Source: a virus
Taxonomy: Duplodnaviria; Heunggongvirae; Uroviricota; Caudoviricetes
IMG/VR virus record: IMGVR_UViG_3300028584_001240
Strand: one strand, 5' to 3'
DNA: 64,000 nt
Positions within the stretch are counted from its first letter, which is position 1; every line of letters begins with the position of its first letter. Positions 9,602 to 26,729 of the stretch are shown here, in pieces. The translations under genes and the position numbers were made by a program. A model generated the notes under the pieces. The model was not told the DNA's origin. It did no database searches and worked only from the letters and a program-made list of their open reading frames with translations.

Positions 9602-9808
9602 TTATTTATGATAACGGGAAATTCTCGCAATCTCACCATCCATCCATTGAACAGCACTCAATTCTGGAAGAAGTTTATTCTCTGGTTCAAAGATAAAACG
9701 ACGAACACCACGAAGCAAACCATAACCATAGCTCAATTCAGAAACGATTTTGTAAAGGTTGCCACTGATTGAATACATCTTGCCGCAAATGAGAGGTTTA
9801 TGTTTCAT
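9602..9808 (-). CDS. Hypothetical small protein
   Basis: 68-aa ORF with AAGGA upstream. No recognisable motif. Confidence 0.5.
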   Translation of the reverse strand: MKHKPLICGKMYSISGNLYKIVSELSYGYGLLRGVRRFIFEPENKLLPELSAVQWMDGEIARISRYHK

Positions 9809-9897
9809 GGAGTTAATTCCTTGCTGGTCATTTAAGTAGGTCGCTATTGTATCAAAAATTTAATCACTAAGCAACTGAAATAGTATTAAAATAATCC

Positions 9898-9926
9898 TTT
9901 ACGGAAGTGTCATATTTTGTTATAAT
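9898..9926 (+). promoter_or_regulatory. Putative sigma70-type promoter
   Basis: TTTACG, 17 nt, then TATAAT. The spacer GTCATATTTTGT-TATAAT is nearly identical to the one at 24536-24555. Confidence 0.5.
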
Positions 9927-9963
9927 TTCCTTTAAATTTATTGATAATTATTGACAAGGTGGA

Positions 9964-10569
9964 ATGAAAAAAATGTTAAACAAAGAAGCACTACTCCATA
10001 AAATAAAAGAAAAAAGTACAAAGTTTCTAGAAATAAAAAATCCGGGTGAATTAAATTGTACACCAGAAGGAAACGTTATTGATTTTAATAATATATCATA
10101 CATTAGATTACATAAAGGTCTTTTTATCATCAATAAACACACCGCCAAAAGCTTTTTTAACATTGCTTTTGAAGGTGAAGAAGACGAATATTTAGAAAAA
10201 ATTATCGAAATTTTTAATATATACGCTCATTTTGATTACTTTTTGTATACACCTAAAGACGATGGTTTTAATGTTTACAGCAAAGGTTTTGAAGCGAACT
10301 ATATAGAAAGGAAAATTAAAAAAGAACCTGAAATTGAACAAAAAGAAGGCGTATTTTATTCCAACCTTTGTAAAGAAATATCGCTTGGGCCAATGATGGA
10401 ATGTACATTAGGTATGAAAAATACAGCTTATAGTTATAAAGAGTTATATGAAAACGTCATCTATCCACAATTTCAAGAAATGCTGAAAGAAAGCATTGGA
10501 TTAGAAATTACGCACATGAGCCAGTTTGATGACCGGGCTTTTGAACTATTAAAGATGGCAAGAATTTAA
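9964..10569 (+). CDS. Tail-motif paralogue family member
   Basis: 201 aa. Ends ..DRAFELLKMARI. AAGGTGG SD. Confidence 0.75.
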   Translation: MKKMLNKEALLHKIKEKSTKFLEIKNPGELNCTPEGNVIDFNNISYIRLHKGLFIINKHTAKSFFNIAFEGEEDEYLEKIIEIFNIYAHFDYFLYTPKDDGFNVYSKGFEANYIERKIKKEPEIEQKEGVFYSNLCKEISLGPMMECTLGMKNTAYSYKELYENVIYPQFQEMLKESIGLEITHMSQFDDRAFELLKMARI

Positions 10570-10594
10570 CCACATTGCTGAACAGGAGGTAACC

Positions 10595-10930
10595 ATGTTA
10601 AATGCATTAAGGTATGTGTGGTCATTGTATGATTACTATACAAAGTTTAAACAATCCAGCGATTTCTTCATGCATGATGAATTATTGACGATTACACGTC
10701 TGCGAAATATGAACGGATTGATTGTTGACAGTCGCGGTGAACTTGGATGTTCCTCAATATCCATCAGTTCAAAATATGTAACATTGGACACACCACAAGC
10801 AACACTAGATTTATTTTTCAATAAGTCATGGCTCGAAGTGAAAGCTAAATATCCACGTAGACATTGGTATTATCAAATGGAAAAAAGAATGATTAATTAC
10901 CAACGTTCAAAAAATAAAAATGTAAAATAA
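10595..10930 (+). CDS. Hypothetical protein
   Basis: 111 aa with a strong SD (cAGGAGGtaaccATG). No recognisable motif. Confidence 0.7.
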   Translation: MLNALRYVWSLYDYYTKFKQSSDFFMHDELLTITRLRNMNGLIVDSRGELGCSSISISSKYVTLDTPQATLDLFFNKSWLEVKAKYPRRHWYYQMEKRMINYQRSKNKNVK

Positions 10931-10932
10931 AT

Positions 10933-10970
10933 AAAAAAGGCACCTAAGATAATTAGAATGCCTTTTTTTT
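10933..10970. terminator. Probable bidirectional terminator between convergent units
   Basis: aaaaaaGGCAcCTAAgataaTTAGaaTGCCtttttttt. An interrupted hairpin flanked by A- and T-runs. Confidence 0.5.
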
Positions 10971-10981
10971 GTAAACAATTT

Positions 10982-11779
10982 TTAAATAGCAGTCATCAAT
11001 AACAAATCTATTTTATCGGCAATATTTTCTTGTGGTATATCTAAAAATTCTTGATAAAATCCATTATGAAGATTACTCACATACATCATCAATATTTCAT
11101 CTGTAAAAACATCAATATCATGATCAGTAAAAAGGGTGCTGGCTTCTATAATATCTTCCAAGGTCACTAAGCCAGCTAAACTTTCTGGAAGTTTATATAC
11201 CTTTTTATCTGATAGGCTAAAATATAATGAAAAGGGTTGAGTATGATTAAAAAAACGGACTGTTGGAAATAAAGCTATCTTTCCATCGCGGGTTATTGAA
11301 AAGTTTCTAATGAATTCATATTGTCCAACATTTCTATAAGACCGACTAACACATGATGTTATACCATATTTATGGCTATCTTTTTCCAACATGTATGTTT
11401 TTGCAAAAGTATAAAATTCATGAGGCTTTATATCACTACTCAATTTCAATAATCTTGAGAAATTGGTGTTTTTTTGAAAAGAATTAAGAGCTTCATTGAT
11501 AAAATTAAAATCTTTTCTTGATGTTTTATGAATTTGAAACATTTGATTGAACTTGTCTAGATAAGAAAGATCTTTGAGACAAATTGAATGGAAAAGAGGT
11601 TGTCCCGGTGAAATACCGAAACTGAAAAATGGTTTATTTATATTAATGGGGTTCTTATGTTTTTTAAACAAAATATGAACTTGAGTGTCCATCATAGGAT
11701 ATTGTTCATATTCAAAAAATGTTGTTTTTGTTGTTTTGGTATTAAATGCCCCAGAAACAGCATTCCGAAAATTTTCCAT
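10982..11779 (-). CDS. Tail-motif paralogue family member
   Basis: Ends ..ADKIDLLLMTAI. Start moved from TTG 11791 to ATG 11779 (GGAG 7 nt upstream). Confidence 0.8.
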   Translation of the reverse strand: MENFRNAVSGAFNTKTTKTTFFEYEQYPMMDTQVHILFKKHKNPININKPFFSFGISPGQPLFHSICLKDLSYLDKFNQMFQIHKTSRKDFNFINEALNSFQKNTNFSRLLKLSSDIKPHEFYTFAKTYMLEKDSHKYGITSCVSRSYRNVGQYEFIRNFSITRDGKIALFPTVRFFNHTQPFSLYFSLSDKKVYKLPESLAGLVTLEDIIEASTLFTDHDIDVFTDEILMMYVSNLHNGFYQEFLDIPQENIADKIDLLLMTAI

Positions 11780-11812
11780 AATAAGCTCCAAAAATAATGA
11801 ATCATAATAACA

Positions 11813-12604
11813 TTATATACTATTCATTTCAACCAAGTTCATCATTTCAGCGTAATTAGAACAACTGTCAAAAATACTCTCAACCAGTTTCCTGTCGTTA
11901 AGGAGACTGTCAATATAGTAAAAGAAAATATCGTATGTCCAATTACTATCAATTGAAGTCTTTAAATCATTAATCTCAACACCATTATCGAACAATTGTT
12001 CAAAGGTCAATAAACACCTATCAGCATTGTTTCCACTAAACGTTGAAATATTCGCTGCTTTATTCAGTTCAGGCGATAGCAAAATTGAATAGGTCTTTTG
12101 TTTTAAAGAGATATCCAACACTAAGATTGGGCGAAATTTTCCAGAATTATCTAATACCATTCGCTTGTCATAAGAATAATAGAAGTTATGTCTTTTCGGT
12201 GAGTGATAAAGGTCTATATCTGATAATGTGCATGAATTATAAAACATATGCTCAACTCGCTGGTTAACAGTGACGACTCGATGAATGGATTTTAAATCAA
12301 AATCACCCTTGGTTTTAATCATATGAACAAGGGCATCATTCAAACAAAAAGATGAAAATGCTTTTTTGAGTAGCTTGTTTTCTTCTCGGGTATACATAAT
12401 ATCTGGAATACATGATAAATAGACATCTTCATTATAAAAAACTGAACGCGAAAGAACCTTCCCATGAAAATTTAACAAGGCGACTGGCTCATTGTTCTGA
12501 TGTGTTAATGAAAGTGTTGAACTGTTTAAAAATGTGGCCGAAACAAAATGACCATCAAAGGTTTTAGAAACAGCGTCAAGAAGCGTCTGGTTAATGTTTG
12601 ACAT
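11813..12604 (-). CDS. Tail-motif paralogue family member
   Basis: 263 aa. Ends ..AEMMNLVEMNSI. Starts 2 nt after the upstream stop. Confidence 0.8.
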   Translation of the reverse strand: MSNINQTLLDAVSKTFDGHFVSATFLNSSTLSLTHQNNEPVALLNFHGKVLSRSVFYNEDVYLSCIPDIMYTREENKLLKKAFSSFCLNDALVHMIKTKGDFDLKSIHRVVTVNQRVEHMFYNSCTLSDIDLYHSPKRHNFYYSYDKRMVLDNSGKFRPILVLDISLKQKTYSILLSPELNKAANISTFSGNNADRCLLTFEQLFDNGVEINDLKTSIDSNWTYDIFFYYIDSLLNDRKLVESIFDSCSNYAEMMNLVEMNSI

Positions 12605-12606
12605 TG

Positions 12607-13521
12607 TTAATACGTCAACATCTCAGTTACTTTCAATCGACCAATCAACTCGGATCTTGGTAAGGTCATCATTAATTTTTTCTCCTTCAATTTTAAGTTT
12701 TCAGCTCTACCAATAATATTGACCACACACTTTATGAATTTAGCATTAAATTTCTCAAATAGCTCATCAATAGAAGCTTCCATATTATCAGAAAACATAG
12801 GAACTGCATACTTAAATTTTAAAGTTGATAAGACAGGTAGGTTAAACAAAAACCCCGGCACGAATGCTCCTTTATCATCTCTCATCAATACAATTTCTAC
12901 TTTGGCCGGAGAAAATGAAAAGCTCGTTTGTTTTCTTGAGTTCTCAGTCTTTGAAAGATAACCATAATAAGATTTGCACAAACGTTGCTCTTTTGTATCT
13001 TTGTAAGTTTTAGTCTTCACAAAAAAATCTTTCAACTGTTGTGGAATAGCACTTTTTTCAAACTTTTCAAAGAATTCAAATTCATTAGTTTCTTTAATAT
13101 AACGATCAATAACCGTTTCCATAATGTAGGATGGAAAATCACGACTAGCCATCAACTGTTCAAATAAGGTGAGAACAACTTTACTTTTATCAATCTTATC
13201 ATTAAAAATTGAATAAACAGCTTGACCATCATACACATTGTTATAAACTCGTAAGTATTTATTATCAAAGGGCTTTGGCCCAGTCTCAAGGATAATTCTG
13301 AATCCATAAGTTTGATAGGGGTCATTAATTTCAATAGGATAAGTTTTAGGCCCATACTTATCAACCAGTATAGCTCTAATTTGTTTTATAAGTGGATCAT
13401 ATTCTTTCATAGCGGCCTCTTGTTTTTCTTTATTATCTTTTGTTGCTTGATTAAAAGTAGTCACTTTGACAGCACCACTGTTGATACTGCTAAGTAAGGC
13501 TGTTAGATCAATATTTTTCAT
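12607..13521 (-). CDS. Tail-motif paralogue family member
   Basis: 304 aa. Ends ..LIGRLKVTEMLTY. Confidence 0.8.
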   Translation of the reverse strand: MKNIDLTALLSSINSGAVKVTTFNQATKDNKEKQEAAMKEYDPLIKQIRAILVDKYGPKTYPIEINDPYQTYGFRIILETGPKPFDNKYLRVYNNVYDGQAVYSIFNDKIDKSKVVLTLFEQLMASRDFPSYIMETVIDRYIKETNEFEFFEKFEKSAIPQQLKDFFVKTKTYKDTKEQRLCKSYYGYLSKTENSRKQTSFSFSPAKVEIVLMRDDKGAFVPGFLFNLPVLSTLKFKYAVPMFSDNMEASIDELFEKFNAKFIKCVVNIIGRAENLKLKEKKLMMTLPRSELIGRLKVTEMLTY

Positions 13522-13536
13522 TATTAATATCCTATC

Positions 13537-14316
13537 TCAAATATGATGCATTGCAATGATGGAAAGGTGATCTTCAAAAGATTCCTTGTTAAGAGCTTTA
13601 AAGCCTGCTTCATCAATATCAAATAATTTTTTGAAAAGAGTTTGAACAATAGGATCGATTTCATTTTTGACTTTTGTCAAAAAGCCAGCAAGATTGTTCT
13701 GCATGGTGTGAGCACTAGACAAATGAATATCATGATCAATAGAACCAAACTTAATTTTAATATAAGGATACGAAGTAAATTGACCATCACGATATTGAAA
13801 CATCAGTTTAGTGGTCATCATGATCATTGAATTTTGAACTTTGTATAACTTAGCATTCAAAAAATGGTTTGAATAGCTTCTCATCGCATAAAAATAAGAA
13901 TGTGAGCTGTACGATCTAATGAAACCAAACTGTGATTTAAAGAGGTTCTTATCATGAAAATCTGAAGACTTTAATAAACTGTATTTGGTCGTAAAGTCTA
14001 AAAACCCCTTATTAAAATCTTTGATGAATGAATCAGCATCTTTATGCATAAGCATTTGAGATAGCTCATCAAGAAATGTTTCATTGATATCCGTTGAGAT
14101 GTGAATCGTCTTTTTATCTTGTCGATTAACATAGACATAAATAAATTTGTGCTCATTATTGACGCACACAGTAAATTTAATGACATCAGACTGACCCATA
14201 TCAACTTTATGTTTAATATTGGTTCCAATCACATCAAGATTAAATCTTTCTTTCAATAGATGACTAAAATCCTTCTTAATGACCAAAAGGTGATTGACTT
14301 CTTTTTTACTTGTCAT
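13537..14316 (-). CDS. Tail-motif paralogue family member
   Basis: 259 aa. Ends ..FEDHLSIIAMHHI. ATGA overlap with the upstream gene. Confidence 0.8.
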   Translation of the reverse strand: MTSKKEVNHLLVIKKDFSHLLKERFNLDVIGTNIKHKVDMGQSDVIKFTVCVNNEHKFIYVYVNRQDKKTIHISTDINETFLDELSQMLMHKDADSFIKDFNKGFLDFTTKYSLLKSSDFHDKNLFKSQFGFIRSYSSHSYFYAMRSYSNHFLNAKLYKVQNSMIMMTTKLMFQYRDGQFTSYPYIKIKFGSIDHDIHLSSAHTMQNNLAGFLTKVKNEIDPIVQTLFKKLFDIDEAGFKALNKESFEDHLSIIAMHHI

Positions 14317-15125
14317 ACTTTTAACATCTCCAATACTTTAAAGTCATTAATCGAACCGTTAGCTTCACTGCTAATGCCAGCAACATTAAATTGATTGACA
14401 TAGAAAGTGTATAATTCAGGTGTTAGTTTATTCATGAAATCATTAATATAATCATTAAGTCCAACTAAGGTTGGGTTTTTATTAATAGCTACATTTCTAA
14501 CAATATCAACTGATGAAATAATGCTTATTGTTGTTGTGCTCAAATCCGGGTGCTCAGTATTTAATCTATAATGGTTAGTATCTAACAAATTAACAAACTG
14601 ACCAGAGTGTTCATCAATAAAGAATCGAGTTTTTCCAAATCCACGTAAATTGATACACAGATCAATAATGGGTTTAATTTTAAAATCTTCGGTCACCACA
14701 TAACCTAATTCGGTAAACAACATATTCCATGCATTCGTGTAATAGAACATAGGAGAGAGCGTTATTCTTTTTCCTACTATTTTCGACCTATTGAAAGTAT
14801 CAGCCTCAAAGAAAATAGGGTCTTTAAAAATAATTTTTGAAATCTCATGGTTAAACAAACTATCTGAAATCATTTGACACGTCTTAAAACTATCAAATTG
14901 TGTAAAAATAGAGTTGGCTGTCTCACGGAAATCAGGATCGGTTAATTTGTAGTAAGAAAATTTATGAGTTTCACTGTCATATCCAAAGTTAAGCACTTTA
15001 CTCATTGTCACATTGTTAAAAAGATAAAATGTCTGTTTGTCTTCATGAAAATCAAGAGAATAATCATCACCCAGTATTAAGCTGAATGCTTGTTTAATGC
15101 TATCAATGGTAGTGAATTCATTCAT
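14313..15125 (-). CDS. Tail-motif paralogue family member
   Basis: 270 aa. Ends ..INDFKVLEMLKV. 1-nt overlap with the upstream gene. Confidence 0.8.
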   Translation of the reverse strand: MNEFTTIDSIKQAFSLILGDDYSLDFHEDKQTFYLFNNVTMSKVLNFGYDSETHKFSYYKLTDPDFRETANSIFTQFDSFKTCQMISDSLFNHEISKIIFKDPIFFEADTFNRSKIVGKRITLSPMFYYTNAWNMLFTELGYVVTEDFKIKPIIDLCINLRGFGKTRFFIDEHSGQFVNLLDTNHYRLNTEHPDLSTTTISIISSVDIVRNVAINKNPTLVGLNDYINDFMNKLTPELYTFYVNQFNVAGISSEANGSINDFKVLEMLKV

Positions 15126-15886
15126 TAGATATTTTCCATAGTCATTAGTGTTAGATAACTTTTAATATCATCCTCAGAAAAACAGGTTATATCATCAAGA
15201 CAAAATTTTTCTGAAATAGTTGATGAAGCGTTTTTTAAAACAACAGCGTAAATGTTGCTGCACATTTTATTAACTCTATTCAAAAAGTCTTCGTCATCCT
15301 TTAAATCAAGAGAAATGGAATGAGCCGTAATAACAAATTGGATCATCTTACTAGATTTTAAAACGGAACCATCCAAATAGTAATAAGGTTTACTTTTAAG
15401 ACGTGCGTTCATGAAAGAAAATTCATTAAAATGGCTTTCAAATGAAATTTTACCTTGCAACATTTCTTTATGAATACAATATTTACTTTTTCTTTTTTTA
15501 TCATGGTAAATTTCACCCATAGGCTGAGCATTAAATTTAATATGCACTGAACCTACCTGAAATTCACTAAGAATGGCGTTGATAGAGTCTTTAATAAGAT
15601 GTAGTTGTTCATTTTCTTGTTTAGACATGAAAAACCAATAGAAGTCTCGAATCAGTCCGGGGTTGGCACTGGATTTAATAATAATTTCTTGAGTGTTGTG
15701 TAAATAATCTGCAGAAATAGAGTGCAATTTATTTTTTTCTGTTTTGTAGTAACAGGTAATAATAGATCCTGCTTGATCCGCATTGTCTTCAATAGAAAAA
15801 GAATCTAATTCACGAACTAAAACATCAACAATAAATTTTACAATATTGTTTTTAATAAACGTAGAATTGTCTAATAAAGTTGACAT
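15125..15886 (-). CDS. Tail-motif paralogue family member
   Basis: 253 aa. Ends ..IKSYLTLMTMENI. Confidence 0.8.
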   Translation of the reverse strand: MSTLLDNSTFIKNNIVKFIVDVLVRELDSFSIEDNADQAGSIITCYYKTEKNKLHSISADYLHNTQEIIIKSSANPGLIRDFYWFFMSKQENEQLHLIKDSINAILSEFQVGSVHIKFNAQPMGEIYHDKKRKSKYCIHKEMLQGKISFESHFNEFSFMNARLKSKPYYYLDGSVLKSSKMIQFVITAHSISLDLKDDEDFLNRVNKMCSNIYAVVLKNASSTISEKFCLDDITCFSEDDIKSYLTLMTMENI

Positions 15887-15937
15887 GAATTAAATCTCCA
15901 AAATATGGCACAATTATACCATATTTTTAGGGTTAAA

Positions 15938-16771
15938 TCAATAAGCAGCCATTTCTGTTACAATGACATAATCAACAAGTTGTTGCATAGAGTATTCGGT
16001 AACTTCACCTAACGATTCATGGTCTTTAAGTCTAAGATTACGTTTAATGATATCATACAATTGGGAGCGAATACAGCGTTCATATTTATAAACTAACAAT
16101 TGAACGTCATCTTCACTAATACCTTTATTAGCATCCACCATAATAGTCAACTTAATATCAGCTAACAATGGGATGTTTAAAACATAAACAGGCAACAATT
16201 CACCTGTATAAGTAGACATATTTAAACTCATGGTACACACTGAATAGGCTGCTTTACTTTTTCTATTGCTAAATCGACGGCGTTGTTCAGCTTTACGACT
16301 ACGAGCTGAATAATAGAACATTGCCAAATGTTTTTTACTCGTTGATTTTCTTCGATGATTATCATCAGAAGTTAATGAATCAATGGATAAATCTTTTGGG
16401 TGATATTCCACAGAGTCAAACTGATTCCATTTTAACCCTGCTTCAAAAAACTTCTGAATAATAGCTTGAAGGTAGTTTTCATCCACAACAGGATCTTTAA
16501 AAAGTGTTGAATAAAGGTTCTTGTAGTCATCAATAGAACCATCCATGCCTACTTTTAAAAAGTTACCATTTTCACACGGTAACACGTAGGCATTAAGGAT
16601 GTTATAAGCACTCGATTTGTAACCTGTCTTTCTATTTTTAAAAATTGAAAAACCATCGTGTCCATAATCAACAGTGTATTGTTCAAAAGGGCGGTCCAAA
16701 CCATCTGACAGCACTGTTTTAGCATGATCTAACAGTGGCTGACAGATTTCTTTTGAATTGAGTTTAGACAC
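15938..16771 (-). CDS. Tail-motif paralogue family member
   Basis: 277 aa. Ends ..LVDYVIVTEMAAY. Its ATG directly abuts the serS stop codon (16772). Confidence 0.8.
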   Translation of the reverse strand: MSKLNSKEICQPLLDHAKTVLSDGLDRPFEQYTVDYGHDGFSIFKNRKTGYKSSAYNILNAYVLPCENGNFLKVGMDGSIDDYKNLYSTLFKDPVVDENYLQAIIQKFFEAGLKWNQFDSVEYHPKDLSIDSLTSDDNHRRKSTSKKHLAMFYYSARSRKAEQRRRFSNRKSKAAYSVCTMSLNMSTYTGELLPVYVLNIPLLADIKLTIMVDANKGISEDDVQLLVYKYERCIRSQLYDIIKRNLRLKDHESLGEVTEYSMQQLVDYVIVTEMAAY

Positions 16772-18052
<1,281 letters not shown>

Positions 18053-18090
18053 TCAAATATTCGATATTCTAACACAGTAATACTATTTAT

Positions 18091-18855
18091 TCAATAGCGT
18101 TCGATAGCCAAAACTGGATAGTAACTCATAATCTCTTCGTTACTTAATGCATTTACTTGAGTATGCGTTAAATTATATAGACGAATAATTGTACCTAAAA
18201 TTTGTGTCTGATGGAGGTCATTAAATTGAGTGGCAAAAGTATGCATCTGCATTTTAACTAAACTATCCTGTTCACTTTTCTTCTGAAACCAAAAATCCAT
18301 ACCAAATGACATGAAGTGAAATTCATCATTAAGATAAAATTGATTATTCTCAAATATAAATTTAGCTATTTTATAAACCTTAAAAGTCTCAAAAGGTGTT
18401 GTAACTTCGGCATGAATAGTTTTATCCATCATGAGCGTTTTCCATGAACCAAATTTCAATATTCTTTTTGCAAAAGGTAAAACATTTATGTTTGAGATGA
18501 TTTTTAGTTGCTCGCTGTATTCACTTGCAGCCTTCATAAATAATGAAAAAGAATCTGTGCTTTGTTCACTGCAGTGTTTAATAAATTTATTATAAAGTGG
18601 CAAATATTTTTTGTTATCAATATCTAAGGTAATGTTATTTACTACATAATCACCTTTTTTAACATTATTATTGATAGTAAATCGAAAAATAGGCTTAGCT
18701 TTACTCGTATTGACATCTAAGCAACAAATTGTCCTACCACCAGTATACTGACCCAACCCAGTGCGGGTATGGAAAATAACAGAGCCTTTCATATTTTTTT
18801 CAAAGAAAGGTCTTAACTCTGAGATCATTGCTTGACATAATTCATTATCGTTCAT
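18091..18855 (-). CDS. Tail-motif paralogue family member (sub-cluster A, 1 of 3)
   Basis: 254 aa. Ends ..IMSYYPVLAIERY (Ile replaces the Met). Shares KFIFENNQFYLNDEF with the next two genes. Confidence 0.8.
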   Translation of the reverse strand: MNDNELCQAMISELRPFFEKNMKGSVIFHTRTGLGQYTGGRTICCLDVNTSKAKPIFRFTINNNVKKGDYVVNNITLDIDNKKYLPLYNKFIKHCSEQSTDSFSLFMKAASEYSEQLKIISNINVLPFAKRILKFGSWKTLMMDKTIHAEVTTPFETFKVYKIAKFIFENNQFYLNDEFHFMSFGMDFWFQKKSEQDSLVKMQMHTFATQFNDLHQTQILGTIIRLYNLTHTQVNALSNEEIMSYYPVLAIERY

Positions 18856-18873
18856 TTTTTGTGTTTCCTATCA

Positions 18874-19632
18874 TTAATAACGTTCCATTGACAATACTGG
18901 GTAATAAGACTGGAACTGTTTATCAGTCCAAAGACCAAACTCAGTAAAAGGCACATCATACAGTTCATTAATTTTTGAAGTAATAATTTCATAGTGATCT
19001 TCATAAAATTTATGAGCAAATTCTTTAACTTCAACCTTCATGACATCTACGTCTTCTGTTTTTTGAGCAAACGTATAGTGTTGACCTAGTGAAGTAAAAC
19101 TAAACTTATCATGTAAATAAAATTTATTATTTTCAAAAATAAATTTAGGTGTCTTATGAATGTTGATAACTTCAAAAGGAGTTGTCATAATGGCATGGAC
19201 AGCAAGATCCACTCTAATATAGTCACCATCTGCAATCAACTTTCTTTCCTCAAATGGCAATACATCAATAGCAGTTATTAATTTTAAATGATCAGTCTGT
19301 TTAAGTGTTTCATTCATAAACAAATTAAATGAATTAGAACTGTATTGGCTACACACAGCTATGAATTTATTCAATATGTTTAAATGTTTTTCATCGTGGA
19401 CTTTTATTTCGATAGATTTAAACTTTTGATCATAGATCCTTCTGTCTTTCATAATAATAAAAGATAATAAAAGTTGTCCGGTAGAGGACTGCATATGTAA
19501 AATATCCAAAGAAATACCATTAGGCTTAGTATTATTTAATGAAGCCTTAAACATAACAGGATAATTAAGATGTCGAGCCGCAAACAAGCTTAAAACTGAT
19601 TTCATACTCTCAACCAGTTGTTCTGTTGTCAT
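18874..19632 (-). CDS. Tail-motif paralogue family member (sub-cluster A, 2 of 3)
   Basis: 252 aa. Ends ..FQSYYPVLSMERY. Contains PKFIFENNKFYLHDKF. Confidence 0.8.
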   Translation of the reverse strand: MTTEQLVESMKSVLSLFAARHLNYPVMFKASLNNTKPNGISLDILHMQSSTGQLLLSFIIMKDRRIYDQKFKSIEIKVHDEKHLNILNKFIAVCSQYSSNSFNLFMNETLKQTDHLKLITAIDVLPFEERKLIADGDYIRVDLAVHAIMTTPFEVINIHKTPKFIFENNKFYLHDKFSFTSLGQHYTFAQKTEDVDVMKVEVKEFAHKFYEDHYEIITSKINELYDVPFTEFGLWTDKQFQSYYPVLSMERY

Positions 19633-20385
19633 TTAACAAACCTCCATCGCTAATACAGGGTAATAAGACATCAATAATTCTGGCGACCAATTAGAAACTT
19701 CATCAACAGGTGTATTATAGAGTTCACTCAATGCAGTAGTTATATAGAGAAAACATTTATTATAGAATAAATCGGCAAACTTTGAAACGTAATCATTAAT
19801 ATATTTTTCATTATTTTCTGTTCTTTTCATGAACTTAAAATTACCAACTTCCGAAGAAAATACAAATTCAGGATTAATATAGAATTTATTTTTTTCAAAG
19901 ATAAATCTAGGTCTTTGTTCTATTTCAATAGTTTCAAAGGCTGTTTCAAGGTTTGCATAAATTTGTGGATCGATAACACCATGCAATTTTGATGAATACT
20001 GAATAGTGCTGGAATCTTGTAGTATATTGACAGCTTTGATAAATTTCAAATGATTGCTTTGTCTAATCATAGCGTCCACAAATAATGAAAATGAATTAAA
20101 CCCATCAACACAATATTCCTTTACAAACAAATTATAGATGCCTAAATATTTTTGGTCACCAATCACTATATTAATTGAATGTCTTTTAGCCTCATTTGTC
20201 GATTCAAGAATAAAACTGAAAATAATGCTTCCTGATGCAGTGAGGACACGAACATCAGGAAAAAGATTATGACTGCCAACATTACCATTAGTCCGTTTCT
20301 GGAAAAAGACAGGTTCGAGCACATTATCTTTAAAAAATGGCTTTATTTTGGCTATAATTGAATCACATAAATCATTTATATTCAT
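19633..20385 (-). CDS. Tail-motif paralogue family member (sub-cluster A, 3 of 3)
   Basis: 250 aa. Ends ..LMSYYPVLAMEVC. Contains PRFIFEKNKFYINPEF. Confidence 0.8.
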   Translation of the reverse strand: MNINDLCDSIIAKIKPFFKDNVLEPVFFQKRTNGNVGSHNLFPDVRVLTASGSIIFSFILESTNEAKRHSINIVIGDQKYLGIYNLFVKEYCVDGFNSFSLFVDAMIRQSNHLKFIKAVNILQDSSTIQYSSKLHGVIDPQIYANLETAFETIEIEQRPRFIFEKNKFYINPEFVFSSEVGNFKFMKRTENNEKYINDYVSKFADLFYNKCFLYITTALSELYNTPVDEVSNWSPELLMSYYPVLAMEVC

Positions 20386-21119
20386 ATTTTGTGCATCTCT
20401 AATAGTTGAACATATCGAACAATATCTTCATCTAATACTTCTTTTGGATCAAGCGTTATTTTTAAATTCTGCCGAATCCTATTAATAATAGATGATCTTG
20501 ATAAATTATAAAGACCTTTCTCTAAATCCTCATAATAAGATGGATGGTTATCCAATAATTGTGGGTGAGAACTGATGATTTTGTCAGAGAAATGAACAGA
20601 GCAATTTAATCGAAGGTCAAGATATAACTCTTTATTGTAAATAGTAAATACGCAATCATGTCGAATAGTTGTTAAGCCTAATACAGACGTGAACTTTGCC
20701 ACATTAGTTCCTGACAATTTATTAAAATCATTAACTCGGTTCACCCGATCAGATGTAAAAAGGTTAAAGATATTGTCTTCTGATTCGAGTTTGGTCATTT
20801 TGAATAATGATAATTGTTCATGTATGTTTTCAAACATTTTAATAATACGAGCATAGTGAGAATCAACTCGTTTAGCTTTCTTAACCATTTCACGTAAGTA
20901 AAGCTCACCTTCACCATCATAATGGTAAACGTTTAAGATAGGCAAGATGCCTTGTCTATCATTGATATAAATAATAAGTAAGTGTTGTTTCTTGTTGCCA
21001 GTATAAATACTCACTGTAAAAACTGGATTCACAGCCGGTACTTCTTCGACAACAACATCTACACTGAAATGTTCTTTAAAGAATTTAGTAAATACTGGAA
21101 TGATTAACTTTTTCAACAT
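20382..21119 (-). CDS. Tail-motif paralogue family member
   Basis: 245 aa. Ends ..IVRYVQLLEMHKI. Confidence 0.8.
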   Translation of the reverse strand: MLKKLIIPVFTKFFKEHFSVDVVVEEVPAVNPVFTVSIYTGNKKQHLLIIYINDRQGILPILNVYHYDGEGELYLREMVKKAKRVDSHYARIIKMFENIHEQLSLFKMTKLESEDNIFNLFTSDRVNRVNDFNKLSGTNVAKFTSVLGLTTIRHDCVFTIYNKELYLDLRLNCSVHFSDKIISSHPQLLDNHPSYYEDLEKGLYNLSRSSIINRIRQNLKITLDPKEVLDEDIVRYVQLLEMHKI

Positions 21120-21142
21120 ATCTGTAACTCCATCATTAAATT

Positions 21143-21952
21143 TTAAATTTTTGACATATCAATAACATCAATATAACTATCAAACAGTTCTTTACTAATA
21201 GTTTTAAGATCAATGTCCATATCCAAAAATTTTTTTCCAATACGATCTTTAAAGCTGTCATAAAAATAAGTGTAAAACATTCCCACTGATAATACCTCAG
21301 TTATACTGCTATTGGGGGAATGGACTAAAATAGGCGTTTCACCATTGTTATAAAATAAGAACGGACTTTGATCAAGAAACAATACCTTTGTCTGGAATGT
21401 AGCTGTAAACTCGCCATCGTCAAAGGATTGAGGAATACCACCTTTCAAATCAATTTTCTTAGTTTTAATAATCTTAGCGACAACTGGATTATAGGTAACA
21501 TTTTGAATGGCTACGTTAAACTTCTTATTAACAACAGAAGTATCCATATGGGAAAGCATAGAACTTGGTTTAAATTCTACATCACCCGTTTTGATAAATA
21601 AACCTACATCCAAACCTGCCTGAACATAGCTGTCATGAATCGCCTTCATGTAATTAAAATTAGTATTAAAGATTTTATCAAGGTAACGAAGCATACGAGC
21701 CGTCTTTTCTTCATCATCTTGTGTATTAAACGAAAAATGAAGTTCATAAGACTTAGAGTGACTGTTATTTTCCTTGGCAGTTTCTTCGATATAAAGAATA
21801 TCACCATTTTTATTAGGGATGCTCAACACGGAGAAAAATTTACGATCAAAAAATTTCGATTCACTGACTGATTTATCTTTATAGACAAAGCCTTCCGCAA
21901 ACAACTTGGCGGAATAATTTGAAGCAAATTGTTCTATAAATAGATTGTCCAT
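21143..21952 (-). CDS. Tail-motif paralogue family member
   Basis: 269 aa. Ends ..LFDSYIDVIDMSKI. Confidence 0.8.
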   Translation of the reverse strand: MDNLFIEQFASNYSAKLFAEGFVYKDKSVSESKFFDRKFFSVLSIPNKNGDILYIEETAKENNSHSKSYELHFSFNTQDDEEKTARMLRYLDKIFNTNFNYMKAIHDSYVQAGLDVGLFIKTGDVEFKPSSMLSHMDTSVVNKKFNVAIQNVTYNPVVAKIIKTKKIDLKGGIPQSFDDGEFTATFQTKVLFLDQSPFLFYNNGETPILVHSPNSSITEVLSVGMFYTYFYDSFKDRIGKKFLDMDIDLKTISKELFDSYIDVIDMSKI

Positions 21953-22005
21953 AGGATCTCCAATGAAAGATGACCCATTATATCATAAAAACATGTAAAA
22001 ATAAA

Positions 22006-22749
22006 TCAAATTTTAATCATTTTATAGACATTGATTGCTTTTTTAATAAATTCTTCCGATTCATGCATTAAAGAAATCTCTGTCTCTTTAAATATTTCAT
22101 TGTTAATTCTGTTCACAATGATTTTAAAGAATAACGATTCAAGTTCATGTTCTGCATAATCAACACCACAATAAGAGTATACATCATCATTATTATTAAA
22201 AATAAAATAATCATTATCAAAAGAATAGTAAGTTTTAGTGCTATAAAATACTTCACCATCGCTTGTAACATTAATGACATAATTATTTAATCGAAAGATT
22301 TTCTGACCACCCACTGTCTTTTTCATACTAGGTAAAACTTGGAAGAGCTTGTTATTAAACCGGGCATTGTATAAATTATCAGAAGCTGATTTCGTAAAAT
22401 CATCAATAGCGTCAACCACTTCACAGATCCCAAGATGTTCACAAATTTCTTTTTGAATAGCGTCTAGAATTTCATGTTTATGCGAGTTGAATGGAAAAAA
22501 AGATAGCTCTCTGTTTAAAATAACGGTTTTATTTTTTTCATTAATTTTCAATTGATCACAGCGATGAATGTCAACCAACAAACGTAAAGGCCGTTCATTA
22601 AAGAATGTAAATGTTAAAACATAATCGTCAGAAATCATTTTTAGCACAGAAATACTGGGAGAATGAGTAACCTTATGTACAGAATAGCCACCCAAACAAA
22701 AATCAGTGTGGTAACGCTCTAAAAATTTATTAATAATTACTTCTAACAT
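22006..22749 (-). CDS. Tail-motif paralogue family member
   Basis: 247 aa. Ends ..FIKKAINVYKMIKI. Confidence 0.8.
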   Translation of the reverse strand: MLEVIINKFLERYHTDFCLGGYSVHKVTHSPSISVLKMISDDYVLTFTFFNERPLRLLVDIHRCDQLKINEKNKTVILNRELSFFPFNSHKHEILDAIQKEICEHLGICEVVDAIDDFTKSASDNLYNARFNNKLFQVLPSMKKTVGGQKIFRLNNYVINVTSDGEVFYSTKTYYSFDNDYFIFNNNDDVYSYCGVDYAEHELESLFFKIIVNRINNEIFKETEISLMHESEEFIKKAINVYKMIKI

Positions 22750-22758
22750 GTAATATCC

Positions 22759-23526
22759 TTAAATAGTCAGCATTTCTAATAATTGTATTTGTTCTTGATA
22801 TTTGTTATCAAAGTCAATGTCAAAATCAATATTTTTAAAACTTCTGTTGATATTTTTACGAATGGCACGTCTTCTTTTAACTGAAATATAATTTAAAAGC
22901 TGTTCTTTGTTCATATAGTGTTCATCAACTGAATAATGTTCATCAACATTATTAAATTTGATAGCAATAACGTCCCTATCAGAAAAGATGATGTCAATAT
23001 TATAGTTAACAATGATGTTCATATCAGTATCAAAACCTAAATGTTTACCAATAACGGTATTCATTTTAACTCGTCTATTTATTTTTTTATAAAAATCTTT
23101 ATATCCAATTTCGTAAATCAATTTATTAGTATTAAAGAAATCATGACAAGAATCCGAAATGGCATTGAACCGTTTAAATGATTGAATGGAGTCTAGTTGT
23201 TCATCATCAGTTTTAATAAAATCAAATATCTCAAAAACTCTTTTATATTCAATAGTAATAAAAGGTGCAGCCTTCAAAAAATCACGATAAATAGGCTGCT
23301 CTGGTGTTTTTAATGTAGCTAATTGAATTTTTATAGTGCTAGTGTGTGGGATAATTTCAAAAATATAGCAAGTCTCATCATTAAGATGAAAAGAGACATT
23401 AGACGAACCACTCGTATTGTAGCCATATTTCATTTCACTATCTGGCTTATTTTGGGAAATAATAGAGCCATACTTTTCAATAAACAAAGCAGTCAATCGA
23501 ACGAGTTCAGCATGTGTATTGCTCAT
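22759..23526 (-). CDS. Tail-motif paralogue family member
   Basis: Ends ..YQEQIQLLEMLTI. Start moved from TTG 23538 to ATG 23526 (GAGGTG upstream), 1 nt after the upstream stop. Confidence 0.8.
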   Translation of the reverse strand: MSNTHAELVRLTALFIEKYGSIISQNKPDSEMKYGYNTSGSSNVSFHLNDETCYIFEIIPHTSTIKIQLATLKTPEQPIYRDFLKAAPFITIEYKRVFEIFDFIKTDDEQLDSIQSFKRFNAISDSCHDFFNTNKLIYEIGYKDFYKKINRRVKMNTVIGKHLGFDTDMNIIVNYNIDIIFSDRDVIAIKFNNVDEHYSVDEHYMNKEQLLNYISVKRRRAIRKNINRSFKNIDFDIDFDNKYQEQIQLLEMLTI

Positions 23527-23527
23527 A

Positions 23528-24142
23528 TTACACCTCAATCATATCACAAAGAGACACATGAGAACGAATCGTTTCATCAGGCAATTCAAAAAAGAACTTC
23601 TTAGTCATCCCAACATTAGTTTTTTTGTTAACAATATAATGAAGAGAACCCATTGTTTCGACATAAAACAAATTAAGAAGTTCTTCCATAGTAACTTTTT
23701 TATGACTTTCGTTAACCTCACTAGGATGGCGGTAAGTGAGCCAAATATCACCCGTATCCAAATCAAACCAGAGATCTTTTTTATTCATTAGGTGGACCGG
23801 CCAGCAAAGGCGAAGAAAGTTACCAGAATAGATGTTTTTTATCCCCTCTTCTCGGGCTTCAAATTCTGTGTCGAAGCGATAATAGATAATCGAAGTTTTA
23901 GCGACTTTACCACTACTGGACTTACGACGATACGCTGTGCTGTATGTAATTCGTTCAAAATTATTGGATTGAGATTTCATGTAAGTGAATGTTGCTTCAA
24001 AACCATTCTCCATAACACGTCTCATAAAGCTTTCCACTGAAAAGCCAACATCCTGAAAAGCTCCAAGGTCAACACTCTTTTGAAATGCAGACTGAATAAA
24101 GGTCTTTACAGTAGTGAAATCAAATGAATTTAAATCTCTCAT
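23528..24142 (-). CDS. Tail-motif paralogue family member
   Basis: 204 aa. Ends ..IRSHVSLCDMIEV. GGAG upstream. First gene after the promoter at 24172-24200. Confidence 0.8.
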   Translation of the reverse strand: MRDLNSFDFTTVKTFIQSAFQKSVDLGAFQDVGFSVESFMRRVMENGFEATFTYMKSQSNNFERITYSTAYRRKSSSGKVAKTSIIYYRFDTEFEAREEGIKNIYSGNFLRLCWPVHLMNKKDLWFDLDTGDIWLTYRHPSEVNESHKKVTMEELLNLFYVETMGSLHYIVNKKTNVGMTKKFFFELPDETIRSHVSLCDMIEV

Positions 24143-24171
24143 GGTGATATAGCTCCAAAAAATGATGTCCC

Positions 24172-24200
24172 ATCATAACATATTGGGTCATTTTGAGCAA
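24172..24200 (-). promoter_or_regulatory. Putative promoter of the 13-kb minus-strand paralogue array
   Basis: Minus strand: TTGCTC, 17 nt, then TATGAT with TGt (extended -10). Confidence 0.5.
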
Positions 24201-24204
24201 GAAA

Positions 24205-24232
24205 TAAAAAAGGCAACCGTTTTTGGCTGCCT
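24205..24232 (-). terminator. Rho-independent terminator after the small ORF 24254..24409
   Basis: Minus strand: GGCAGCCaaaaacGGTTGCCtttttt. Confidence 0.75.
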
Positions 24233-24253
24233 ATGGTATTTAAGTGGTTAAAA

Positions 24254-24409
24254 TCAATAACCGAGTGCTTTTTCTCGTAGCTGTTCGAAACGATCCCATG
24301 CTTGTTCTTTCGATACCCGTGGTGCAAATTTGGCTTCATGCTGTTTCCATGCCAGCTCAATTTCACGTTCTTTGCGTTCAGTTTTGGTGTTCACTACAAT
24401 TTTAGCCAT
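24254..24409 (-). CDS. Small basic hypothetical protein (51 aa; below the ORF-track cutoff)
   Basis: My translation is MAKIVVNTKTERKEREIELAWKQHEAKFAPRVSKEQAWDRFEQLREKALGY. GAGGA SD and a terminator immediately downstream. Preferred over the overlapping track ORF 24139..24366. Confidence 0.6.
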   Translation of the reverse strand: MAKIVVNTKTERKEREIELAWKQHEAKFAPRVSKEQAWDRFEQLREKALGY

Positions 24410-24525
24410 ATCTAAATCCTCATTTAATTAAGCTTATGTGTTTGAGCTTTAAATATAGCAATATTTATCTTTATTGTCAATAGCCGAAAATAAACGAATT
24501 AAAGGCTTTAAAATAAGTAAATAAA

Positions 24526-24555
24526 TTGACAGATATCGTCATATTTTGCTATAAT
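24526..24555 (+). promoter_or_regulatory. Near-consensus sigma70 promoter
   Basis: TTGACA, 18 nt, then TATAAT with TGc (extended -10). Confidence 0.7.
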
Positions 24556-24584
24556 AGCCCAAATTTTAAAGAGGTGTTTATTGT

Positions 24585-26729
24585 ATGCATATCAATCCTA
24601 AGTTTTACAAAGTGCTTGAAGAACTGTGTTTGAAACAACAAGGTTATCACTATCATGGTTATAATTCAAGTTTCGATAGAGACTATGGGGCATTTGTTTA
24701 TTTAGACGATCTAGCGGACACTTGTAGATATGAAGCATTTAAAAAATATAATTTATCTGATATTCGTAATGATAATGATTTTAAACTGTGTTTAGGTTTA
24801 GAATTCCTAGATATGGATTTATCCATGCTCAGTATGACCAATAGAAAACTTGAAATGTGTAATTACATGGATTTTGACAGTGAGTCTCGACAATTCATGC
24901 CATCCATGATGAAAAGAAACAAAGATTTCTCAAAAGAAGAAATTATAAAAACATTTGAATACAAACTGATGAATTTTGAAAGTTCTATACAAATGAGCTA
25001 TCATGCGATCAGAGAAACATTTATGGTTCGAAATTTTTTAAATTGCACACCACTGGTAGATGAATGGTTGTCGTTTGCAAAGAAACATAATGTATCCATT
25101 GACAGTGAAATGGCACCTGTCCTTGAGTTTTTAGAAAAAGATAAGGATAGCTTTAAAATCTATCAGCAATTGATGTCTGATTTTAGTGATATTAGAAATA
25201 ATTCGATAGGGTTTATCAAGAAATCTCACAGTATCATGAGAGAGATTTATTACAACAAACCACACCACGGATTTGAAGGCTTTATTAATCCACACTATGG
25301 AATGAATTCAAACGACAATCGAATGACTGGTGAGCAATATGTTGTAGATAAGGAAATTATCAATGAGGTAGACACGCTTCAAGAAAAAATTGATTTTTTG
25401 AAAAATAACATCAAAAAGGCTATTAGTTCTGTTAAAAACGATGAATATGATGAAGTCGAAATTAGAAACAATAATAAAGTATTAGTCACTGCAATCTATT
25501 CAGCCTATAAGAAACTGAAAGATAAAATTGCTCTACCTGTAACAAAAGCAAAGTTTTTCAGTGAAGATGTAACGCTTTTGACACCTAATAAAATATGTGA
25601 CGAACATGCTATTGAGACTTTTTTAGAAAAAAGAACGAAAGATGTTATGTTGATTGCTGAGAATATTTCTCATCAAAATATCCATTATAAAAAAGTAATC
25701 GTTTTTGAAGATAAAAGTTTAGCTGTTTTGGTGGATGGTCAAGAACGATTTGAAGTTTTTGTTGATATTAATGAAACCAAACACCTTGTAAAAGCAGCAA
25801 TGGTTGGTTACTTGAAACACATGCTTAGAAAAAACCCAACAATTGCCAAGGTTATCAGCAATGCATTTGAAAGTAATATTAACAAAATAAATGAGAGTAC
25901 TGAGCGGTATCATGATAGACCATTCCAGCTCAATAAAATTATGGTATCTATTGATACTTATTTCAAAAATGAAAACATTTTAAAATCCTTGAAATTTGAT
26001 TTCATTGAAACTTGCAAAAAATTATCTTCATTTGAAAAAATTGATGACAAGATGCATAAATTAATTCGTGAACATAAAATTAAAAAATACGCTGAAAGCA
26101 TTGTGAGTAGCAAGTATAAACATTTGTATAATGCTCAAAGTTATAAGTTATTTAAGGAACTCTATGATTTAGGGATCGATTTGAAGATTGTTCAAGAAAT
26201 GATTGGTAAAAAGTTGGCGGCTGTTGAAACTGAAAAAATGTTTAATGAACATATTAAAAGTTTAATCAATAGTTTTAATGATTTTGATATGGAATCCATT
26301 AAAATTAAAGCTTCATCTAACAAAGTAAACGTTATTTCAGATACTGATAATATTCTTATTCTTGAAATCTCTAACTTTGAGCAATCTAAGAAATTAGGAA
26401 GCGGTTCTTGGTGCATTAGTCGAAACAAGACGTATTTTGACCAATATGTTGAAAGAGATGGAAAGCAATATTTCATTTATGATTTCAATCAAACATCAAA
26501 AAGTGTTAAATCACTGGTGGGCATCACTTTAACAAGTACAAAAACGGTAAAAGCGGCTCATAGTAAAAGTGATGGACATTTTAGCGACAAGAAGATGATT
26601 GATTATCTCATTGAGAAGGTGACGAAACTAGAAGAACAAGTCAAACCAAAAGTGACTGCAGTTAGAAAGACTAGAAAGAAAAAAGAAATTGATGGTGTCG
26701 ATATTACTCATTTAACCATTGGCTTCTAA
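24585..26729 (+). CDS. Large hypothetical protein, paralogue of 5898..7802
   Basis: 714 aa with AGAGGTG SD. C-terminal EHKIKKYAESIVSSKYKHLYN..ILILEISNFEQSKKLGSGSWCISRN..KQYFIYDFN..SLVGITL matches the other gene. A KNPTIAKV / KSPTIAKM segment is also shared. Confidence 0.8.
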   Translation: MHINPKFYKVLEELCLKQQGYHYHGYNSSFDRDYGAFVYLDDLADTCRYEAFKKYNLSDIRNDNDFKLCLGLEFLDMDLSMLSMTNRKLEMCNYMDFDSESRQFMPSMMKRNKDFSKEEIIKTFEYKLMNFESSIQMSYHAIRETFMVRNFLNCTPLVDEWLSFAKKHNVSIDSEMAPVLEFLEKDKDSFKIYQQLMSDFSDIRNNSIGFIKKSHSIMREIYYNKPHHGFEGFINPHYGMNSNDNRMTGEQYVVDKEIINEVDTLQEKIDFLKNNIKKAISSVKNDEYDEVEIRNNNKVLVTAIYSAYKKLKDKIALPVTKAKFFSEDVTLLTPNKICDEHAIETFLEKRTKDVMLIAENISHQNIHYKKVIVFEDKSLAVLVDGQERFEVFVDINETKHLVKAAMVGYLKHMLRKNPTIAKVISNAFESNINKINESTERYHDRPFQLNKIMVSIDTYFKNENILKSLKFDFIETCKKLSSFEKIDDKMHKLIREHKIKKYAESIVSSKYKHLYNAQSYKLFKELYDLGIDLKIVQEMIGKKLAAVETEKMFNEHIKSLINSFNDFDMESIKIKASSNKVNVISDTDNILILEISNFEQSKKLGSGSWCISRNKTYFDQYVERDGKQYFIYDFNQTSKSVKSLVGITLTSTKTVKAAHSKSDGHFSDKKMIDYLIEKVTKLEEQVKPKVTAVRKTRKKKEIDGVDITHLTIGF

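Follow-up and report, generated by a model that had tools for sequence, protein, structure and literature searches.

We examined a 64,000-nucleotide stretch of DNA filed as a virus of the Caudoviricetes (IMG/VR record IMGVR_UViG_3300028584_001240; hereafter, the window), in which a seryl-tRNA synthetase gene, serS, lies within a block of genes that encode an orphan protein family. The block runs along the minus strand from 24142 to 10982, where the listing of open reading frames (ORFs) gives 16 consecutive co-directional ORFs. This agrees with an earlier reading of the DNA from its letters alone (the sequence-only reading), which had described an uninterrupted 13-kb minus-strand array. That reading counted 16 family genes in addition to serS; the actual count is 15 family genes of 204-304 aa (g16 to g9 upstream of serS and g7 to g1 downstream of it), which together with serS (423 aa) make 16. 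We refer to the family as the tail family, because all 15 array proteins end in hydrophobic-x-hydrophobic-hydrophobic-x-M-x-x-(I/V/Y/C)-COOH. Met stands exactly at position -4 in 14 of the 15, with Ile in the remaining one, against a background Met frequency of 3%.

The genes of the block are tightly packed. Once the starts of g15 and g1 are corrected to the ATGs at 23526 and 11779, each of which has a good Shine-Dalgarno (SD) sequence upstream and concurs with the gene calls in relatives, the gaps range from -4 to 53 nt (the TTG starts assigned mechanically to these two genes had given an 11-nt overlap). Intergenic DNA amounts to 252 nt, or 1.9% of the block. Start and stop codons overlap as ATGA at 14313-14316 and 20382-20385 and as TAATG at 15125; the same gaps and overlaps had been reported from the letters alone, and the junctions confirm them.

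We compared the block with three related genomes: L017 (ENA ERZ27281805 k141_522346), which is the closest relative, L021 (JGI 3300031134 Ga0308158_10000001), and L002, a 437-kb relative filed in IMG/VR. Paired identities are given throughout as L017 / L021. Gene order is colinear in L017 and L021 and, with fewer genes, in L002. Against L017, the ratio of nonsynonymous to synonymous substitution rates (dN/dS) ranges over 0.07-0.22 across the 14 family genes with an orthologue in that genome (all but g11) and stands at 0.09 in serS; with L021 as the comparison, the 13 computable family genes give 0.09-0.50, the dS of g10 being saturated. The low ratios in the 14 genes and the gene order kept in three genomes bear out the earlier view that the family is not decaying junk. 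In amino-acid identity to L021 the family ranges from 38 to 77%, and serS reaches 89%; the family evolves much faster than serS. The gene without an orthologue, g11, is absent from both close relatives, and reflects either a tandem duplication in the g9/g10 subfamily that happened recently or a loss in the other lineages.

Strong intrinsic terminators lie at both ends of the block. The one at its upstream end belongs to a 51-aa gene (24211-24232, minus strand; an 8 bp stem with 5 GC pairs, then TTTTTTATTT; folding free energy, dG, -14.5, z -5.2) and is kept in L017 and L021. The one that closes the block, which the sequence-only reading had placed at 10933-10970, folds at 10968-10933 on the minus strand (dG -13.9 kcal/mol, z -3.5), with a U-run after it; it is common to the block and the convergent plus-strand gene 10595-10930, and is kept in L017 and L021 with compensatory changes. 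The block is therefore insulated on both sides. A scan for hairpins with T-runs detected no strong internal terminator between 24172 and 10968. The earlier claim that the block contains no terminator thus holds for strong ones, but five weak minus-strand terminator-like hairpins lie within its coding sequence, and one of them, at 16583-16562, is partly conserved. Over 9500-25500, both strands counted, terminator-like hairpins number 10, versus 5.6 +/- 2.8 in shuffled sequences. As a side observation, the 51-aa ORF upstream (24254-24409, minus strand) is conserved and has, besides its own strong terminator at 24232-24211, a near-consensus TG-extended promoter at 24480-24452; back-to-back with it stands a perfect consensus promoter (24526-24555, plus strand; TTGACA-N18-TATAAT) for a 714-aa plus-strand gene.

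On the minus strand of the block we find five candidate promoters of the sigma-70 type, all of them conserved in L017 and L021. The first, P1 (24172-24200; TTGCTC-N17-TATGAT with a TG extension, 29 nt before the g16 ATG), is the promoter-like site from which the sequence-only reading had started the array, and the 60 nt upstream are 0.92 / 0.77 identical. P2 (21977-22009) combines a TG-extended -10 box, TGATATAAT (21985-21977), 24 nt before the g13 ATG, with a TTGATT that lies on the TGA stop of g14. Its TGnTATAAT box is conserved in both relatives, and the gap that holds it is 0.89 / 0.77 identical, versus 0.75-0.78 / 0.61 for the flanking genes. P3, the putative serS promoter (18066-18094; TTGAAT-N17-TAGAAT with a TG extension, 22 nt before the serS ATG), lies in a gap that is 0.91 / 0.90 identical, above every family gene. 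P4 (15913-15941; TTGATT-N17-TATAAT with a TG extension, 26 nt before the g6 ATG) has a gap identity of 0.88 / 0.86. P5 (11804-11832; TTGAAA-N17-TATTAT with a TG extension, 24 nt before the g1 ATG) has both its -35 box and its TG-extended -10 box conserved in L017 and L021. We observed that several -35 boxes fall within the ends of genes: those at 22009-22004, 18094-18089 and 15941-15936 include the TGA stop of the preceding gene (g14, g9 and g7, respectively), and the TTGAAA at 11832-11827 sits in the V-E-M tail codons of g2.

The placement of these sites is regular. Each gap of at least 33 nt carries a sigma-70-type site whose TG-extended -10 box lies 22-29 nt from the start codon. Four copies of the sequence TGNTANAAT are present on the minus strand of 10900-24260, and three of them are in the 252 nt of intergenic DNA; these three coincide with the three longest gaps (before g13, serS and g6), the distance from their 3' ends to the start codon being 22-26 nt. 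P1 and P5 follow this design with slight variations. A TTGAxT box is found upstream of the -10 box at P2, P3 and P4, with a spacing of 17 nt at P3 and P4. In nucleotide identity between the window and L021, the gaps before serS, g6 and g13 score 0.90, 0.86 and 0.77, the family genes 0.53-0.76, and the serS gene 0.85. The same type of box is present at -28 to -46 of 22 of the 79 window ORFs, ligA among them, and is therefore the standard promoter of this genome.

The sequence-only reading had the whole block transcribed as one unit from 24172-24200. The four further conserved sites before g13, serS, g6 and g1 argue otherwise, and the block is probably not one simple single-promoter operon. We consider it unlikely that it is a single 13-kb operon read from 24200-24172 only, with serS purely an operon member and the internal sites non-functional look-alikes. 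Such an operon would sit well with the single strand, the tight spacing and the absence of a strong terminator from 24172 to 10968, and in DNA this AT-rich sigma-70-like matches are as frequent after shuffling. It does not account for internal sites that are TG-extended and conserved, that are confined to gaps of at least 33 nt and keep a constant spacing of 22-26 nt to the start codons, and that in three of the four gaps go with better conservation than in the neighbouring coding sequence; nor does it account for the promoter-like site that serS keeps in genomes where its neighbours differ. Co-transcription of serS with the family, as first proposed, could still occur by read-through, as no strong terminator intervenes, but serS appears to have a conserved promoter of its own. 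Internal starts that isolate serS from its neighbours had been named in advance as evidence against an operon, and conserved sequence signals point to such starts.

The synthetase gene itself (16772-18043, minus strand; dN/dS 0.09) encodes a full-length protein of the bacterial type. Pfam assigns residues 220-397 to PF00587 (tRNA-synt_2b; 8.1e-42) and residues 11-107 to the N-terminal coiled-coil tRNA-binding arm, PF02403 (Seryl_tRNA_N; 5e-7, 30.4 bits vs a cutoff of 28.2), and residues 31-415 align to PDB 2DQ3 (E 1.9e-132). The stretches FRSEAG, TAEVP and NGSALAVGR are identical or near-identical in the two proteins; we take FRSEAG to be motif 2, GSALAVGR to be motif 3 and TAEV to be the serine-binding residues. 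The gene looks functional and maintained by selection (dN/dS 0.08-0.09), and the protein is predicted to carry out serylation.

Several observations bear on how long serS has been in place. Its GC content at third codon positions (GC3) is 0.31, inside the family range of 0.21-0.33, and its higher overall GC stems from first codon positions; no repeats were found flanking it. We therefore regard serS as a compositionally ameliorated long-term resident. A recent acquisition or mobile insert was considered and rejected, given a GC3 equal to that of the neighbours, the lack of flanking repeats and the same position in four genomes. Rfam detects two tRNAs but no T-box or leader RNA before serS, where the gap measures just 47 nt. 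The clade to which serS belongs is metagenome-only, with about 46 clusters at 59-98% identity, and the nearest named cellular SerRS proteins are about 55% identical (Oceanospirillales, Halomonas, Moraxellaceae, Neisseriaceae). In a GTDB scan, the 80 best loci listed have a serS identity of 47-59% over the best segment, none exceeding 59%. The nearest serS matches labelled as phage were discarded as uninformative on the strength of one inspected record, that of Acinetobacter 'phage' MD-2021a, which proved to be a contig of bacterial origin filed as phage (unannotated Ralstonia records were left out).

The genomic context of serS differs among relatives. It occupies the same array position, with the g7 orthologue next to it, in L017, L021 and L002. 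In the more distant relatives L102, L104, L106 and L107, serS is 60-71% identical and lies outside any array in L102, L104 and L107, and largely so in L106. Even so, a TTGnnn-N17-TAnnnT site stands directly upstream of serS in L002, L106, L102 and L107, that is, in four of the five further relatives. Because the promoter-like site is present even where the neighbours are different, we infer that serS is independently promoted and that the arrays grew around it. This is at odds with the earlier picture of serS as a mere operon passenger, since at least three of the four relatives with the site appear to have serS outside arrays. On this evidence serS would be a long-resident gene that the expanding family arrays came to flank in this lineage. 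The other two aminoacyl-tRNA synthetase (aaRS) genes of the window are not coupled to tail genes. One of the distant relatives, L107, is a 36-kb contig (NCBI GCA_013572825.1, JACCDZ010041736.1) from an assembly of more than 41,000 contigs; its serS is 71% identical and has orphan neighbours.

We then asked what kind of genome carries the block. The contigs of its relatives are large: 1,843,594 bp for L017, 1,859,102 bp for L021, and 1,539,155, 662,595, 604,313 and 520,353 bp for P0146, P0155, P0034 and P0030. The great majority of the window ORFs tested, and most of the genes called in five related loci, have no Pfam match. Two window proteins outside the family (42737-43831 and 1667-2044) have their best matches in jumbo phages of proteobacteria, 200-735 kb in size, which include metagenomic phages of 636-735 kb, and the relatives carry SmpB, PNKP, PTH2 and PcfJ. 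Among the window genes of cellular type are those for SerRS, TyrRS, ThrRS, LigA, tRNAs, a SohB-like protease, SPFH and Bax1-I. The ThrRS (46149-47327, plus strand) comprises the catalytic and anticodon-binding domains only (TIGR00418 positions 171-535 of 565), its N-terminal TGS and editing domains being missing. Published huge phages reach a record size of 735 kb, carry up to 15 aaRS per genome, and encode translation genes such as SmpB (PMC7162821). A text search of a 2026 review returned no megabase phage, and the literature otherwise gave nothing relevant on megabase phages. The gene content of the relatives resembles that of huge phages, and they represent either phage-like genomes of megabase size or a bacterium not yet recognised.

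If they were bacterial, the window would belong to the ~1.85-Mb chromosome of a host-associated, AT-rich bacterium that has not been cultured. In that case serS would be its housekeeping copy, with a promoter of its own, and the tail family would be an expanded set of effectors with a C-terminal secretion signal. We think this quite unlikely. The contigs of L017, L021 and P0146 do lie far above the phage record, the window genes of assigned type are all cellular housekeeping genes with no virion genes among them, and a relative could be missing from the 80 best GTDB loci listed. Yet none of these loci comes closer than 59% in serS identity, a ThrRS stripped of its editing domains and a majority of ORFs without a Pfam match are out of keeping with such a chromosome, and the two non-family proteins match jumbo phages best. 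The relatives also share the translation and repair set of huge phages (SmpB, PTH2, PNKP and PcfJ), and the 437-kb relative is filed in IMG/VR. As for a secretion signal, the structural model of g7 places the tail in its better-predicted C-terminal part and not in a disordered stretch.

Within the block, serS leads directly into g7 (15938-16771, minus strand; 277 aa, ending ...TEMAAY), whose orthologue partners serS in L017, L021 and L002. The serS gene starts 47 nt after the preceding gene, and its stop abuts the g7 start with 0 nt between them. Both distances, with the stop at 16772, had been read correctly from the letters, but the g7 start is not the ATG then described; it is a GTG at 16771, which is kept in two relatives. 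In three genomes the junction reads UUG-GAG-CUU-UAA-GUG, with an SD (GGAG) in the last serS codons, and in L002 it is an 11-nt overlap. A junction and an SD conserved in three genomes, with an overlap in the fourth, make the proposed coupling of serS with the next gene plausible: g7 is probably translationally coupled to serS, and would be made by termination-reinitiation, the UAA of serS abutting the GUG of g7 with the SD inside serS. It appears to be the sole gene specifically tied to serS.

Two hairpins follow. One, with a TTTTT run, lies in g7 about 190 nt after serS (16562-16583, minus strand) and is a candidate weak terminator or attenuator; the evidence for it is weak, its pairing being kept in L017 through a compensatory synonymous pair (A-T to G-C) and degraded in L021. 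The other forms in the RNA of the g7-g6 gap (15887-15937), which folds into an AU-rich hairpin (dG -12.7, z -3.6). Both could conceivably attenuate transcription after serS, though the evidence is thin. That transcripts stop at one or the other, so that serS is effectively monocistronic and isolated from the family, is very unlikely, because, against the compensatory double change in L017 and the stability of the gap hairpin, both stems are weak (2-3 G-C pairs), the first one, whose T-run is forced by conserved F-L-K codons, is degraded in L021, and the conserved 0-nt UAA-GUG junction with its embedded SD speaks for translation of g7 from the serS message.

In sum, we judge it likely that this is a conserved block in a huge-phage-like genome, insulated at both ends and served by five promoters, with serS independently promoted and g7 coupled to it. 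Host sigma-70 RNA polymerase would transcribe the block from the five TG-extended promoters before g16, g13, serS, g6 and g1. Nested transcripts would result, all ending at 10968-10933, as no strong terminator intervenes. The sub-units would be g16-g15-g14, g13-g12-g11-g10-g9, serS-g7, g6-g5-g4-g3-g2, and g1 by itself, with read-through adding to every downstream unit.

Several points weigh against this reading. The region holds 93 sigma-70-like matches, versus 85 +/- 10 in shuffled sequences, which is no excess; the case for the promoters therefore comes down to their position and conservation. The P5 gap does not exceed its flanking genes in conservation (0.61), and the conservation of gaps could partly stem from SD or 5' untranslated region (5'-UTR) constraints. 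Before serS of L104 there is no clear promoter match. Both the promoters and the coupling are deduced from sequence. With respect to the genome, no capsid, portal, terminase or other virion or packaging genes are found among the ORFs scanned in the 64-kb window, and the relatives' contigs of 1.5-1.86 Mb exceed the known phage range, so the label 'phage' is unproven. Finally, full-length homology among most of the family members is not demonstrable by sequence.

The family extends well beyond the block. A Met(-4) tail is found on 34 of the 79 window ORFs of at least 70 aa (~40-43%), on both strands; members of the family fill this part of the genome, and the array is their largest local grouping. 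Several further arrays of genes with this tail lie, for instance, at 28800-31013 and 47371-53618 on the minus strand, at 43886-45405 on the plus strand, and at 60913-64000 on the minus strand.

Within the array, all genes being on the minus strand, the series opens with g16 (23528-24142; 204 aa, ending ...CDMIEV; dN/dS 0.09), which has orthologues in L017, L021 and L002. It is followed by g15 (22759-23526; 255 aa from the ATG at 23526, ...LEMLTI; 0.21), g14 (22006-22749; 247 aa, ...YKMIKI; 0.15), g13 (21143-21952; 269 aa, ...IDMSKI; 0.12) and g12 (20382-21119; 245 aa, ...LEMHKI; 0.14), the stop of which overlaps the g11 start in an ATGA. The extra copy of the g9/g10 subfamily, g11 (19633-20385; 250 aa, ...LAMEVC), is 31-33% identical to g9 and g10. 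Next come g10 (18874-19632; 252 aa, ...LSMERY; 0.14) and g9 (18091-18855; 254 aa, ...LAIERY), the sole member with Ile for Met at -4, where its L017 orthologue has Met. Downstream of serS and g7, which has a GTG start, lie g6 (15125-15886; 253 aa, ...MTMENI; 0.19), g5 (14313-15125; 270 aa, ...LEMLKV; 0.10), g4 (13537-14316; 259 aa, ...IAMHHI; 0.10), g3 (12607-13521; 304 aa, ...TEMLTY; 0.08), which is a full-length paralogue of g7, g2 (11813-12604; 263 aa, ...VEMNSI; 0.07) and, as the last gene of the block, g1 (10982-11779; 265 aa from the ATG at 11779, ...LLMTAI; 0.22).

The codons at the conserved tail positions vary and DNA repeats are absent from the block, and the constraint on the tail is therefore at the protein level. 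Two other explanations of the tail as DNA were tried and rejected. A DNA element, be it an attC-like site or an SD for the gene that follows, would not leave the codons free to vary, and the tail is kept by the last gene and by genes before long gaps, with no repeats present. An integron-like cassette array is discounted by the lack of repeated intergenic DNA elements or attC-like sites, by gaps of 0-53 nt, and by a tail that is conserved as amino acids.

Sequence relatedness among the array proteins is limited to g9, g10 and g11 (31-33% identity) and to g3 and g7, for which hhalign gives P 2.9e-9 over 257 columns. In profile-profile comparisons 7 of 78 pairs reach P < 0.01, mostly by aligning the last 25-65 residues only, and no further member was recruited by an iterative hidden Markov model (HMM) search seeded with g9-g11. 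An alignment of 35 window proteins over their last 55 residues displays a helix-linker-helix pattern. AlphaFold2 (AF2) models were made for g7 (predicted local distance difference test, pLDDT, 70.6; predicted template modelling score, pTM, 0.69) and for g9 (pLDDT 58, low confidence). The g7 model and the weak g9 model have the same order of elements, namely an N-terminal helix, a four-strand meander, two helices, a second sheet, a long helix and terminal helices; compared in this way, without superposition, they lend weak support to one common fold for the family. The family proteins appear soluble, have no strong hydrophobic segment of the transmembrane type, and are mixed in isoelectric point, with a median of 5.8.

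No known family or fold was matched by the tail family: it has no hit in Pfam, PHROGs, NCBIfam or PADLOC, and Foldseek against BFVD gave no E below 0.01. A profile of the last 55 residues of the family returned nothing from PDB sequences or from a set of 5.8 billion proteins, tblastn of g10 against phages returned nothing, and a g7/g3 profile found only 15 clusters among 1.84 billion representative proteins. The literature held nothing relevant on a family of this kind. On the likeliest reading, the family would be a set of proteins for host interaction or take-over that diversify rapidly and that dock, by their invariant and exactly placed C-terminus, to a single shared partner. That the Met is near-invariant and the protein always ends three residues later suggests recognition of a free C-terminus and not a mere core helix; the tail as a docking signal is speculative.

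The share of ORFs of at least 100 aa that carry the tail is 34 of 75 in the window, 14 of 20 in L017, 13 of 22 in L021 and 7 of 23 in L002; it falls to 1 of about 24 in L102 and in L104, and bacterial controls have 0-1 of about 19. The density of the motif drops with evolutionary distance and with smaller contig size, and the expansion of the family seems to track genome inflation. One may imagine that an explosion of this orphan superfamily inflated phage-type genomes to 1.5-1.86 Mb, with the tail as a common docking signal that connects many different protein bodies to one machine of the host or the phage, and serS-g7 as an old module that was engulfed; we put this forward tentatively, as a rather doubtful idea.

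Other paralogous genes were seen in the region. Two large orphan paralogues of 714 and 664 aa (24585-26729, plus strand, and 5898-7892, minus strand; E 1.6e-49) flank the array region, and L002 has one orthologue. Three small Cys/His-rich paralogous ORFs (576-1664, minus strand; 84-101 aa), each ending in ...C-x-x-H, adjoin tyrS. In L002, four tandem paralogues with a lipoprotein-like look (1934-6093; 277-427 aa, ending ...CRKP[VI]) stand beside the array, in the place taken in the window by the 714-aa gene and three small plus-strand genes.

As a finding about an operon, the block is largely ordinary: aaRS genes are known from huge phages, and tight multi-promoter arrays are normal in large phages. 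What is unusual is the company that serS keeps, an orphan superfamily with Met fixed at -4 that is under purifying selection and yet diverges far faster than serS. This tail superfamily makes up almost half of the window ORFs, and it is enriched in the relatives with contigs of up to 1.5-1.86 Mb. Should those replicons prove phage-like, they would set a new upper limit of phage size, as by far the largest phage-like genomes known, and would provide, among the viruses of bacteria, a parallel to the multigene-family 'accordion' of giant eukaryotic viruses. The parts worth following are the orphan tail superfamily and the megabase-scale relatives, the latter being the most interesting lead, and the conserved serS-g7 couple is a concrete entry point to the function of the family.

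These features can be set against known systems. Like the Aquifex aeolicus SerRS (PDB 2DQ3), the serS product is full length, with the N-terminal arm, the class II core and the motifs present; unlike it, serS belongs to a separate metagenome-only clade. The early clusters of large lytic phages of the T4 type consist of many small co-directional ORFs with several host-type promoters, few terminators and overlapping start and stop codons. The block resembles them in being co-directional and tight, in its start/stop overlaps of the ATGA and TAATG kind, in having several promoters of the sigma-70 type, and in having terminators at its ends only, but its genes are not very small (~250 aa) and form one superfamily defined by its tail.

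Large eukaryotic DNA viruses have tandem multigene families, such as multigene families (MGF) 360 and 505 of African swine fever virus (ASFV) and the poxvirus ankyrin proteins with a C-terminal PRANC/F-box-like motif. By analogy, the tail family may be likened to these in its arrays of highly divergent paralogues, whose bodies vary and whose C-terminal module is conserved, in a copy number that varies between close relatives (g11), and in a family density that rises with genome size; there is, however, no sequence or fold relationship, and the host here is bacterial.

A further comparison is with the huge phages of Al-Shayeb et al. 2020 (PMC7162821). As in those genomes, the window is AT-rich and rich in orphan ORFs, with several aaRS (SerRS, TyrRS and a truncated ThrRS) and tRNAs, and its synthetases are related to yet distinct from proteobacterial ones, the clade of this serS spanning 59-98% identity and cellular enzymes following from about 55%. 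In contrast to them, serS here lies inside a conserved array of an orphan family and is probably start/stop-coupled to one of its members, and the relatives' contigs measure 1.5-1.86 Mb, versus a published maximum of 735 kb.

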